A stretch of 64,000 nt of DNA, from assembly GCA_964187785.1 (NCBI GenBank), contig OZ076409.1, forward strand, positions 19,780,001 to 19,844,000, written 5' to 3'. Origin of the DNA: Amphiscolops sp. MND2022 (lineage: Eukaryota). This document shows positions 28,235 through 44,609 of this stretch, piece by piece; the first letter of the stretch is position 1, and the number at the start of each line of letters is the position of its first letter. Below the pieces are notes generated by a model. It saw only the letters and a list, made by a program, of their open reading frames with translations, had not been told where the DNA came from and searched no databases. The position numbers and the translations under genes were made by a program.

Positions 28235-30072
28235 TGTCGCAGGCTGCCGCCTGTGACGGAAACAAGTACCAAGTGGCCCCTAACGACAGTCATTTGTCCT
28301 ACATACCCGGAGTCCTACCACTGTAATTAGTTGGACCTTTGGTCCCGTTGTCTTAAACTTTTAGTTTTGAATTAGTATGTTTAGTATGTAAATTATCTTA
28401 GATTACTGTTATTAGACATGTAATATATACTAGTGTTAATGTAAACCAGAAAAGGATGATTGATGTTTGTTGGATTAATAGCAAGTACTGTAATTAAGCT
28501 CTGTGCAATAAAGGAAACGCGTTCAAAGTGAAATTCACTTTGGTCAGTTTGACGCGCAGTCTATTTTGATTATTATCCAATCATGTGCTAGTATTCATCA
28601 TTCATTTAATCTGCTTGTTCAACATGTAGTACATGTATTTAGTCAACCGGACTACCAGTCCGCAGTGCTGTAGTTGCTAACGATATTTAGTCGGATGGAC
28701 CACCGGTCCGCAAACACGTAATAATTACATAAGCGTACTGTGCAAACAAGCGTTGGCCTTTCAAGCTACGCGTAACGTGACTTGAAAGGCAAGCCGCCTG
28801 TCAGTCCTTATCTCATTCTCCCATTCACAGACCCTCAACCCAATCGATGCTATTTTTAGATATGACCTAATAATGACGCAATGTGGACGTCAGGACCTAG
28901 GGTCATTTTGACACAATTTAGTTGCTATTTTTAGTAACATGACCATTGAAATTATGCTTGTCATGTATCATTTAGTATAAATAGCTGATCCTCCTTGTCC
29001 AAAGGACACAACTTTGAATACGACGACGAAAACCAGAAATCACAAATTGCTGTTCATTGATCAATCTTTGTTATTGTTCTGTTCTATTCCTTTTCTCTCA
29101 GTTCAAGTTCAGTTAACTGATAAAAGCTCAATATATTCTTTGCCGAGCAATAAATTCTTCAAATGCCTTCGACAAGAAAACAAAAGGCTACGGAGAAAAG
29201 GTCAAGACAATCTGACGTGATGTCTGACCTAGAGAATGTAGATATAATGCTAGGAATTTATTCCAGAATCGAATTAGATAGTCATCTAGGAGAAAGAGAA
29301 ACTGAGTTGGACCTTGAGTCCAATGGCCCTCAAACTGCAAATCCTATTAGTGAAGACTTCAGGTCGCTAATTAATACAAATAGTAGGGAAAACAGTGATA
29401 TTACCATTGAGACTGCAAGACTGATAAATAATGGAATCACGTCCCAAGTGACCAGAAAACTGGATGAGATTAGAAGTGATTTAAATTCCCAAATTTTGGA
29501 AGTTATCAACTCGGCAATTACTGAAAAGGTACTTCCAAGCATTCAAAACGTACTAGGGGTTCAAAATCCTGAATCTGACGCAATTAGGGATTCACAGTCC
29601 GGTAGACTAACCAGGAGCCCCGAGGATCGCTTTGGTCATATGGGCCACCAGTCCCAAAGACTTAACGTGGGCCTCAGAGAATGTTCAAATAGTGTGGACC
29701 ACTGGTCCAATAGACTTAATAATAAGGGCCGAAGAGACCAATCTTGTCACACGTCCCACCGGTCCAGGGGACTGGATAGAGACCATAGAGTCTGTTCAGG
29801 TCAGACGGACCACCAGTCCCATAGACCGGGCAACAGCTCAGGGGAACAATATGGTCAAGCGGACTACAGGTCTCCAGGACCGGACAAAGGCTCTAAATGT
29901 TATAGCGGTGTTTCGGCCCACAGGTCCACCAGACCAGATAACAGTTCAGGAGGACAGTTAGGCCCTCAAGATCAACAAAACAACATGAAAATAGATAAGA
30001 AATTCAGCAGTCATAGAGGTTTGAATAGGGAGATCTCAACGGACTCCCAGACCTCAGACCAAGATTGCGACA
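28235..30072 (+). repeat. 5' LTR (1838 bp)
   Basis: Direct repeat of 42771-44609 with about 35 differences counted by eye (~98% identity); 7-bp terminal inverted repeat TGTCGCA/TGCGACA. Confidence 0.95.
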
Positions 30073-31196
30073 TGGTGACAGGAGCCAACCATACCCCCCA
30101 TACGGTTCCTGAGTTCCTTACCGGACGTCCCATGCAATCCCAAGAACCCCTGCAAAATCCAGAAGACACTCATGGCGAACCCCTGGACCCCACCCAACAG
30201 GTCCCAGGTGACGCACTACCGAACACCACTACCGATCCCATCAATAGACTTGCTGACATACTGGTAGGTATCAACAACCGACCCACGGCACAGACCCTCA
30301 CGGTACGCCCCGTCAGCTCGACTACAGTAACATTTGATGGGAAATCAGAGAAATTCGAGCTCTTCGAAGACCTTTTCCACACAATGATCAAAATGCAGCC
30401 TGAAATGACTGAAGCAATGAAAATCAACCATTTCCACTCATTGTTACGCAAGAATGCCTTGCAAACATTCCGTAACATCAATTCAACAAACAAGCAAACA
30501 TTAGAGGACATCTTAGCTATATTCCGTAGAAAATACGTGAAACCAGAGTCCCAGGCGACCGCCAAACACAAATGGCACAGATTGGTGTTCGACCCCAACA
30601 CCATGAAACTGCCAGACTTCCTTGAAGAACTCAATCAGGGAGCTGAAAAAGCGTTTGGCGAGAATGCCCAGGCTATGATTGATAGTCTCCTCTATGCCAA
30701 ATTGCCACCAAAATTGGAACGCTCCGTCAATATGGCTAGACTCGAAAACGCCACCTGCGAGGAAATAGTCGCACATTTAGAACGTGAGCTTGAGCTCAAT
30801 GGACTTGAGGAGGGGGACGACATTCCAGTACCAACAATGTCCACTGCCCCTACAGCAACACGACCGGGAACTGGCCTTCTCTCTTCTGGCATCGATCCAA
30901 ATATTTTTTGCAACTATTGCAAGAAACCCGGACATGTCAAAGACGATTGTCGAAAACTTAAAAGAAAGGAGGAACAACGCCACAATGACGGGCAGGATAC
31001 CAAGAAAGAGTATCCAAAATGTCCAACTTGCGACAAAACGAACCACCCGGCGGAACGATGTTGGAAAGGCGCTGGAGCCCACCTCAAGCCCAAAAACCTT
31101 AAACTGGAGGACACCACAGTTGCCGATAAGTCCACCAGCCAAGAAGATGTAAAAAATAAACAAACCAGGTCAATCTTAAAGAATCCAAAAAACTAG
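29163..31196 (+). CDS. gag: Gag-like protein (677 aa); N-terminal ~300 aa are encoded inside the LTR
   Basis: Capsid-like FDGKSEKFELFEDLF region and two zinc knuckles (CNYCKKPGHVKDDC, CPTCDKTNHPAERC); ORF intact. Confidence 0.9.
   Translation: MPSTRKQKATEKRSRQSDVMSDLENVDIMLGIYSRIELDSHLGERETELDLESNGPQTANPISEDFRSLINTNSRENSDITIETARLINNGITSQVTRKLDEIRSDLNSQILEVINSAITEKVLPSIQNVLGVQNPESDAIRDSQSGRLTRSPEDRFGHMGHQSQRLNVGLRECSNSVDHWSNRLNNKGRRDQSCHTSHRSRGLDRDHRVCSGQTDHQSHRPGNSSGEQYGQADYRSPGPDKGSKCYSGVSAHRSTRPDNSSGGQLGPQDQQNNMKIDKKFSSHRGLNREISTDSQTSDQDCDMVTGANHTPHTVPEFLTGRPMQSQEPLQNPEDTHGEPLDPTQQVPGDALPNTTTDPINRLADILVGINNRPTAQTLTVRPVSSTTVTFDGKSEKFELFEDLFHTMIKMQPEMTEAMKINHFHSLLRKNALQTFRNINSTNKQTLEDILAIFRRKYVKPESQATAKHKWHRLVFDPNTMKLPDFLEELNQGAEKAFGENAQAMIDSLLYAKLPPKLERSVNMARLENATCEEIVAHLERELELNGLEEGDDIPVPTMSTAPTATRPGTGLLSSGIDPNIFCNYCKKPGHVKDDCRKLKRKEEQRHNDGQDTKKEYPKCPTCDKTNHPAERCWKGAGAHLKPKNLKLEDTTVADKSTSQEDVKNKQTRSILKNPKN
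30073..30090 (+). promoter_or_regulatory. Primer-binding site
   Basis: TGGTGACAGGAGCCAACC immediately follows the 5' LTR end; TGG pairs with tRNA 3'-CCA. The cognate tRNA was not identified. Confidence 0.7.
31187..31193 (+). promoter_or_regulatory. Putative -1 ribosomal frameshift site at the gag-pol junction
   Basis: Heptamer A AAA AAC directly before the gag TAG; the -1 frame continues as LDLPQLQIN (ORF 31199). Confidence 0.7.
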
Positions 31197-42862: not shown

Positions 42863-44609
42863 TTAGTTGGACCTTTGGTCCCGTTGCCTTAAACTTTTAG
42901 TTTTGAATTAGTATGTTTAGTATGTAAATTATCTTAGATTACTGTTATTAGACATGTAATATATACTAGTGTTAATGTAAACCAGAAAAGGATGATTGAT
43001 GTTTGTTGGATTAATAGCAAGTACTGTAATTAAGCTCTGTGCAATAAAGGAAACGCGTTCAAAGTGAAATTCACTTTGGTCAGTTTGACGCGCAGTCTAT
43101 TTTGATTATTATCCAATCATGTGCTAGTTTTCATCATTCATTTAATCTGCTTGTTCAACATGTAGTACATGTATTTAGTCAAACGGACTACCAGTCCGCA
43201 GTGCTGTAGTTGCTAACGATATTTAGTCGGATGGACCACCGGTCCGCAATGACGTAATAATTACACAAGCGTACTGTGCAAACAAGCGTTGGCCTTTCAA
43301 GCTACGCGTAACGTGACTTGAAAGGCAAGCCGCCTGTCAGTCCTTATCTCATTCTCCCATTCACAGACCCTCAACCCAAACGATGCTTTTTTTAGATATG
43401 ACCTAATATTGACGCAATGTAGACGTCAGGACCTAGGGTCATTTTGACACAATTTAGTTGCTATTTTCAGTAACATGACCATTGAAATTATGCTTGTCAT
43501 GTATCATTTAGTATAAATAGCTGATCCTCCTTGTCCAAAGGACACAACTTTGAATACGACGAGGAAAACCAGAAATCGCAAATTGCTGTTCATTAATCAA
43601 TCTTTGTTAATGTTCTGTTCTATTCATTTTCTCTCAGTTCAAGTTTAGTTAACTGATAAAAACTCAATATATTCTTTGCCGAGCAATAAATTCTTCAAAT
43701 GCCTTCGACAAGAAAACAAAAGGCTAGGGAGAAAAGGTCAAGACAATCTGACGTGATGTCTGACCTAGAGAATGTAGATATAATGCTAGGAAATTATTCC
43801 AGAAACGAATTAGATAGTCAGCTAGGAGAAAGAGAAACTGAGTTGGACCTTGAGTCCAATGGTCCTCAAACTGCAAATCCTATTAGTGAAGACTTCAGGT
43901 CACTAATTAATACAAATAGTAGGGAAAACAGTGATATTACCATTGAGACGGCAAGACTGATAAATAATGAAATCACGTCCCAAGTGACCAGAAAACTGGA
44001 TGAGATTAGAAGTGATATTAAATTCCCAAATTTTGGAAGTTATCAACTCGGCAATTACTGAAAAGGTACTTCCAAGCATTCAAAACGTACTAGGGGTTCA
44101 AAATCCTGAATCTGACGCAATTAGGGATTCACAGTCCGGTAGACTAACCAGGAGCCCCGAGGATCGCTTTGGTCATATGGGTCACCAGTCCCAAAGACTT
44201 AACGTGGGCCTTAGAGAACGTTCAAATAGTGTGGACCACTGGTCCAATAGACTTAATAATAAGGGCCGAAGAGACCAATCTTGTCACACGTCCCACCGGT
44301 CCAAGGGACTGGATAGAGACCATAGAGTCTGTTCAGGTCAGACGGACCACCAGTCCCATAGACCGGGCAACAGCTCAAGGGAACAATATGGTCAAGCGGA
44401 CTACAGGTCTCCAGGACCGGACAAAGGCTCTAAATGTTATAGCGGTGTTTCGGCCCACAGGTCCACCAGACCAGATAACAGTTCAGCAGGACAGTTAGGC
44501 CCTCAAGACCAACAAAACAACATGAAAATAGATAAGAAATTCAGCAGTCATAGAGGTTTGAATAGGGAGATCTCAACGGACTCCCAGACCTCAGACCAAG
44601 ATTGCGACA
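42771..44609 (+). repeat. 3' LTR (1839 bp), carrying a frameshifted copy of the gag N-terminus (43699-44614)
   Basis: Direct repeat of the 5' LTR; a 1-bp insertion near 44017 splits the gag copy into two ORFs. Confidence 0.95.

Follow-up and report, generated by a model that had tools for sequence, protein, structure and literature searches.

A Gypsy element with two divergent genes between pol and the 3' LTR

The window analyzed here is a stretch of 64,000 nucleotides from Amphiscolops sp. MND2022 (contig OZ076409.1, positions 19,780,001 to 19,844,000; assembly GCA_964187785.1), and the coordinates below count from its first letter. It contains a Ty3/Gypsy long terminal repeat (LTR) retrotransposon of 16,375 bp, at 28235-44609. 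In agreement with an earlier note on this DNA, which had placed 6.6 kb between the integrase stop and the 3' LTR, the stop at 36133 is followed by 6,637 bp that hold two divergent genes: a spliced antisense gene, whose product probably derives from a DNA transposase, and a sense open reading frame (ORF) termed ORF2. This cassette is real, conserved, and unusual. The features of the element are as follows.

28235..30072, plus strand: 5' LTR, 1,838 bp, TG..CA; its 3' half already codes for the Gag N terminus
29163..31196, plus strand: gag, with a DUF1759-like capsid region and a zinc knuckle; damaged in this copy
30073..30084, plus strand: primer-binding site (PBS), 12 nt, complementary to the 3' end of host tRNA-Leu(CAG), within the gag frame
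31197..36133, plus strand: pol, with protease, a dUTPase-like stretch (below cut-off), reverse transcriptase (RT), RNase H, and integrase; broken into several frames here
36314..37570, minus strand: antisense exon 5, ~381 aa, all-helical model; likely the hAT insertion/C-terminal part
37644..37725, minus strand: antisense exon 4, 82 nt
37797..37931, minus strand: antisense exon 3, 135 nt
37996..38481, minus strand: antisense exon 2, 162 aa; predicted to form an RNase H-like transposase core that lacks the catalytic aspartates
38598..40793, minus strand: antisense exon 1, with a conserved short N-terminal motif, a long acidic Ser/Thr/Pro-rich variable region, and a CxxC..H-x-H zinc-finger region; frame broken here
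40794..42004, no strand: intergenic spacer, measured start to start; likely promoter(s)
40805-40830, 40863-40876, 40888-40912, 40921-40944, 41377-41396, and 41638-41654, no strand: conserved spacer blocks, from an alignment of copies
42005..42862, plus strand: ORF2, 285 codons if counted from the conserved ATT/ATA, 272 if counted from the ATG at 42044; the final 30 codons lie within the 3' LTR
42771..44609, plus strand: 3' LTR, 1,839 bp

The antisense gene had been proposed as a spliced gene of ~4.6 kb, and such a gene is present. It runs from an ATG at 40793 to a stop at 36314 (4,480 bp), and its five exons encode a protein of ~1,350 aa. The four introns (116, 64, 71, and 73 nt) are all of the GT-AG type; the GT-AG sites are kept across the aligned copies, and the intron bodies are divergent. 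Exact losses of single introns were also found: introns 2 and 4 are missing from one element, and intron 4 is missing from two database homologues, whose frame reads through. These exact losses confirm the splice junctions concerned and suggest that the antisense gene is transcribed and spliced. Its introns may survive in a retroelement because they lie antisense to the genomic RNA. A search for spliced full-length homologues, itself a weak one, found none. The zinc-finger region is marked by a conserved CxxC and two His residues, and exon 5 of the window copy carries a 110-bp duplication (37216-37420) that is absent from the sister copies compared.

The cassette is a lineage trait

A DNA search of the genome with ORF2 scored 40 places. 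Among 36 stretches anchored on ORF2, the last antisense exon was present in 29 and some antisense exon in 33, and protein searches scored more than 100 copies each, out of thousands of candidates. Young relatives with LTRs 99.7 to 100% identical carry open frames; several of the 21 elements that were fetched as two stretches each are young, with the gag, pol, and cassette frames all open. The distant matches, 11 of 11, proved to be two-LTR Gypsy elements of 15.8 to 17.0 kb with the same layout, two of them with identical LTRs.

Because all these elements had been picked via the cassette, a second sample was chosen by the LTR-PBS junction alone, which has 3,358 exact matches in the genome and 0 in the control. 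The first 40 matches were taken, 35 of which had an integrase within the fetched 10 kb. Close elements in this sample (at least 56% identical to the queries) carried the antisense gene in 20 of 22 cases and ORF2 in 18 of 22. The remaining 13 elements are distant (integrase identity of 38 to 45%) and gave no BLAST match to the cassette queries. Nevertheless, a homologous, far-diverged order of minus-strand exons was recognized in 11 of the 13, and 9 of the 13 weakly match the finger profile. In profile comparisons, homology of the distant elements received probabilities of 45% and 95% for exon 5, 88% and 61% for the finger, and only 2% for exon 2. ORF2 was not detected in these 13, where the sequence retrieved may be too short to reach it. 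Two elements with the same LTR-PBS junction, L193 and L201, do not show the antisense layout; sense ORFs follow pol in both, and in one of them the start is hydrophobic.

The cassette is thus a trait of an abundant, recently active Gypsy lineage. Estimated from the 3,358 junctions, and if most belong to near-full-length elements, the lineage group could account for several percent of the 1.07-Gb genome.

The cassette is under purifying selection

Ratios of nonsynonymous to synonymous substitution rates (dN/dS) were calculated by the method of Nei and Gojobori (NG86) for unsaturated pairs, after removal of copies with stops or with less than 75% coverage; most pairs between subfamilies were saturated and were omitted, and the pairs are not independent. 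The median dN/dS was 0.050 for the finger (4 of 325 pairs), 0.045 for exon 2 (8 of 325 pairs), 0.044 for exon 5 (13 of 465 pairs), and 0.11 for the middle of exon 1 (10 of 190 pairs). The reference medians were 0.034 for gag, 0.016 for RT, and 0.042 for integrase. In five named pairs, the ratio for ORF2 was 0.11 to 0.21. These ratios place the cassette under purifying selection and, together with its family-wide presence, support the suggestion of the earlier note that it encodes accessory proteins. That note had named two findings that would speak against its proposal, a nested insertion in one copy only and neutral evolution. The cassette is family-wide and lacks terminal inverted repeats above chance, and dN/dS is ~0.05 for the finger, exon 2, and exon 5 of the antisense gene, so that the proposal withstands both.

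Three modules are exchanged between elements

Sliding-identity comparisons and trees show gag-pol, the antisense gene, and ORF2 plus the LTR to be three modules swapped between elements. Some pairs are 85 to 99% identical over the LTR, gag, pol, and ORF2 yet only 52 to 72% identical over the antisense gene, with sharp breakpoints; other pairs share ORF2 and the LTR only, and others share gag-pol only. In one pair, the RT is 99% identical and exon 5 is 58% identical. Across 22 elements, exon 5 is at most 67% identical in 13 of the 25 pairs whose RT is at least 90% identical, and grouping at 80% yields 3 RT groups versus 15 for exon 5 and 14 for ORF2. When trees were built from RT, exon 5, and ORF2, each partition rejected the other two (approximately unbiased test, p-AU ≤ 1.9e-10). 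Since the 22 elements were selected for cassette diversity, the exchange rate is not an estimate for the genome, and any of the modules may be the one that moved.

Architecture of the element and its surroundings

The LTRs of the window copy are 98.1% identical (1,804 matches, 34 substitutions, 1 indel) and have TG..CA ends, and the 5-bp target duplication that flanks the copy is mismatched at 1 position. TG..CA ends and short (5-bp) target duplications recur in the relatives, and the Pfam domains follow the order protease-RT-RNase H-integrase, which is the Gypsy order. The window copy is decayed: pol aligns as seven pieces with shifting frames, antisense exon 1 aligns as three pieces, and gag is broken. 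ORF2, unlike gag, pol, and the antisense gene, is still open. In young relatives, the pol frame is open over 1,690 to 1,738 aa. A dUTPase-like stretch lies between protease and RT in relative L077 (4136-9313), with an E value of 0.0026 that is below the cut-off.

The primer site is coding because Gag begins inside the LTR. The start of gag lies ~900 nt inside the LTR (29163-30084 in the window), which leaves a truncated gag frame in each 3' or solo LTR. The 3'-end pattern of tRNA-Leu has 794 matches genome-wide and forms a tandem array with ~296-bp spacing at G000:C8:35.59-35.65 Mb. At the other end of the internal region, the polypurine tract before the 3' LTR consists of 5 to 8 purines in one clade and is missing in the other. 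The 5' end of the LTR (42755-42800) also serves as conserved coding sequence of ORF2, and the priming of the plus strand may be atypical.

Outside the element, a Maverick/Polinton-like element with 40-nt terminal inverted repeats occupies 44677-62990, starting 67 bp past the 3' LTR; its frames, labeled by eye, include look-alikes of a protein-primed polymerase, an ATPase, an integrase, a capsid protein, and a protease. Three long near-perfect palindromes lie at 8015-8172, 9882-10052, and 23969-24096.

The spacer and ORF2

The earlier note had described an AT-rich spacer of ~1 kb at 41050-42040. Its guanine-plus-cytosine (GC) content, 37 to 39%, is indeed below that of the coding parts (44 to 49%), but it roughly equals that of the flanks (36%), and the bounds are now 40794-42004. 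Three motifs adjoining the antisense start are conserved above shuffled sequences (14 of 15 spacers versus 1.9, 15 of 15 versus 4.8, and 10 of 15 versus 0.0), and two of them resemble ETS sites. The ORF2 side has just two weaker alignable blocks. CCAAT occurs in 15 of 15 spacers, with 11.7 expected, so that its mere occurrence is close to chance level; TATA shows no conservation, being found in 6 of 15 spacers where 12.9 were expected. It is plausible from this conservation that the spacer holds a shared bidirectional promoter.

ORF2 combines an acidic N terminus that bears a motif like a SUMO-interacting motif (SIM) with a conserved C-terminal Cys/His domain. The SIM-like motif is present in 24 of 26 ORF2 copies; the single SUMO gene found in the genome is split by an intron. 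As the earlier note had stated, ORF2 is not env-like: it has no transmembrane stretch (top 19-residue hydropathy, 0.80 to 1.37 in 26 copies) and no Pfam env match, which sets the element apart from env-bearing, errantivirus-like Gypsy elements.

The 272-aa sense ORF of that note is present from the ATG at 42044, and conserved coding begins 13 codons earlier (42005-42043; 6 codons in one clade), with ATT or ATA as the first codon. At this upstream start, A at -3 and G at +4 are found in 16 of 16 lineages, and an upstream in-frame Met is found in only 2 of 16. Translation of ORF2 may thus start at a non-AUG codon. We rejected a spliced upstream exon, as there is no common acceptor AG at the conserved start and an in-frame stop lies 2 to 10 codons ahead in several lineages. 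In the divergent element L221, a sense ORF present in duplicate occupies the position of ORF2 (6784-7449 and 7930-8547, element orientation); it bears SIM-like motifs and a basic cluster and is unmatched by the ORF2 profile.

The antisense protein probably derives from a hAT transposase

Three segments of the antisense protein were compared with known proteins. The model of exons 2 and 3 (predicted local distance difference test [pLDDT] of 70, 66 sequences) has the order helix-three strands-helix-strand-helix, that of an RNase H-like core, and the first seven rows of its Foldseek search are Hermes transposase (best E value, 7.6e-4), the match being only local. For a homologue of exons 4 and 5, 30 of 30 named neighbors in the language-model-based Atlas fall in hAT-dimerization or FAM200/GTF2IRD2 clusters (best score, 0.91). 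The model of exon 5 (pLDDT of 84) has a colinear VIA alignment, with residues 1-277 on Hermes 367-609, that ranks 5th of 48,161; it is the longest alignment in the VIA listing and in the expected order. For an exon 1 homologue, the Atlas gave zf-BED (0.81) and the Spin-doc finger (0.78), which are leads only, and Pfam gave no zf-BED match for the exon 1 region. A profile of exon 5 matches 564 clusters at 50% identity, and the ten examined are unnamed ENA records. Searches of Pfam and of PDB sequences with the antisense protein gave no match. The DUF4371 profile had no match anywhere, and this result is uninformative because the controls also gave none. We consider it probable that the antisense protein descends from a hAT DNA transposase.

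The catalytic residues of such an enzyme are missing. At the presumed catalytic positions of the hAT family, column counts over 65 to 92 sequences revealed neither the DDE triad nor the CxxH motif: the strand 1 site is Glu instead of Asp in 60 of 65 sequences, strand 4 is without an acidic residue, and the third site has no conserved Glu. The longest terminal inverted repeats around the antisense gene measure 9 to 13 nt, as in shuffled sequences, in eight of eight elements. Because a predicted hAT-like fold is combined with a missing triad and no inverted repeats, the protein is likely to be a transposase-like scaffold in its working and not a transposase.

Possible functions of the cassette

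We favor the view, to which we give slightly less than an even chance, that both accessory proteins, the antisense one being hAT derived, act as nuclear DNA-binding regulators that keep the element transcribed. The antisense mRNA would be made, spliced, and at times recombined back into elements, leaving exact single-intron losses in some lineages; the introns would persist through reverse transcription, facing away from the genomic RNA. The dead transposase would bind DNA through its finger and scaffold, and its acidic tail would recruit host factors, while ORF2 would engage the SUMO pathway through its SIM-like motifs. Old, very different alleles would be retained and reshuffled because they matter in a contest of the element with silencing by the host or with its siblings. 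A more specific version is possible but doubtful: an ancient Gypsy lineage would have domesticated a hAT transposase as a DNA-binding counter-silencing factor and joined to it a SUMO-binding partner and a shared bidirectional promoter, with dozens of old alleles of both genes reshuffled on near-identical gag-pol under diversifying pressure. If true, this would be a retrotransposon counterpart of the accessory genes of complex retroviruses, made from another class of transposon.

Several results weigh against a hAT-derived regulator. The match of exons 2 and 3 to Hermes is only local (template modeling score of 0.36, root mean square deviation [rmsd] of 13 Å). That of exon 5 (Z score of 4.3, rmsd of 6.2 Å, 164 residues aligned) lies below chance-level helical matches and is not significant alone, and Foldseek found no match for the exon 5 model. 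The Atlas neighbors, drawn from named clusters only, share 127 to 150 of 256 features, fewer than the 170 usual for same-family matches. Pfam gave no hAT match for any antisense piece or for 106 exon 5 homologues, and profile comparison with the genome's own hAT proteins, for which the templates were shallow, reached probabilities of at most 0.5% and 7.8% in two runs. As for ORF2, its median dN/dS is 0.57 over the 7 unsaturated of 378 pairs, and the SIM-like motif is short and is predicted from sequence. Two elements with a near-identical LTR and ORF2 bear very different antisense alleles, which makes an allele-specific target in the LTR unlikely. There is also no tandem motif of the type recognized by VANC proteins: in the spacer and LTR of 10 elements (gag-pol and the antisense body being unscanned), no 9-mer occurs in more than 4 copies. 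Because the antisense alleles do not track the LTR and no tandem motif was found, any allele-specific target would have to be conserved or be located within the module.

Alternatively, the dead transposase might serve integration, by tethering the preintegration complex to chromatin or chosen DNA sites or by importing it into the nucleus, with different alleles conferring different target preferences. The scaffolds of hAT transposases bind both DNA ends and target DNA, and here many alleles occur together with one and the same integrase. For plant elements, extra ORFs have been proposed to mediate nuclear import (PMC7264820). However, the target duplications of 14 elements have no common sequence, and the protein of a separately spliced gene would need to be recruited in trans. 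We consider this explanation unlikely.

Still less likely, in our judgment, is a module for competition or self-control among sibling elements, that is, a repressor, an exclusion factor, or a poison-antidote pair, the alleles being incompatibility groups of which rare ones are favored. Domesticated hAT proteins are often repressors, and a function of this kind would suit two divergent genes and many old alleles on few backbones. The two genes are nevertheless swapped independently, and a strict poison-antidote pair should not withstand such separation.

The negative Pfam, profile, and exon 5 Foldseek results would be expected if the antisense protein were instead a captured or new zinc-finger protein whose RNase H-like fold, a common one, had another source. 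We see only a slim chance of this, as hAT is indicated by three separate segments that follow the correct N-to-C order. A nested DNA transposon, an active transposase, or neutral cargo might be suggested by the transposase-like fold and the broken window copy but is largely refuted and very improbable, given no inverted repeats above shuffles in eight of eight elements, the missing catalytic residues, dN/dS of ~0.05, and the location of all distant matches examined in Gypsy elements.

Comparison with known systems

The earlier note had regarded the cassette as the best candidate in the window for an undescribed system. This must be tempered because the plant Ty3/Gypsy elements Retand, Grande, and RIRE2 are known to carry additional antisense ORFs in the same place, after pol and before the 3' LTR (PMC11963269, PMC7264820). 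The likely hAT origin and the module exchange go beyond what that note had claimed. Literature searches of incomplete coverage listed no paper on an antisense gene of hAT origin within an LTR element.

As in Retand and Grande, the region from pol to the LTR is long (2.9 to 6.6 kb there and 6.6 kb here) and holds a conserved antisense ORF. DNA binding and a nuclear role have been proposed there, as we propose here; Grande gene23 has its own promoter, whereas here we find only conserved motifs. The element differs in lacking a TRP28 (PF04195) match in Pfam searches and in its four introns, the word 'intron' occurring nowhere in the Retand paper (PMC11963269). It further differs in its likely hAT origin, its second, divergent sense gene, the absence of a tandem array, and the exchange of modules between near-identical backbones.

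Compared with hAT transposases (Hermes and the Buster/FAM200/GTF2IRD2-like proteins) and their dead domesticated derivatives, the antisense gene appears to have the zinc finger, the RNase H-like core, and the helical C-terminal part in the same order. It differs in having a long acidic N-terminal extension and neither a DDE triad nor terminal inverted repeats, and in that a different mobile element, rather than the host, has retained it.

Two other systems offer analogies only. VANC of the Arabidopsis VANDAL transposons (PMC6719617) is likewise an accessory protein encoded by the element and diverging fast between families; it belongs to a DNA transposon, acts in a context of DNA methylation, and has tandem target motifs, none of which we found here, and there is no sequence link. 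LTR retrotransposons of bdelloid rotifers (PMC5408684) are also animal Gypsy-like elements with extra, non-env ORFs (ORF3s) after pol and with a dUTPase between protease and RT. Their ORF3s, which encode GDSL esterases, DEDDy exonucleases, and transmembrane proteins, are reported to be expressed from spliced messages, and the available portion of that report describes no antisense transposase-like gene.

If our interpretation is correct, one class of mobile element has domesticated an enzyme that belonged to another, and accessory genes with introns reside in a retrotransposon. Reviews treat the function of antisense extra ORFs as an open question (PMC7264820, PMC11963269). That function is testable here, given a recognizable fold, copies in the thousands, and alleles that have been swapped naturally on one backbone.

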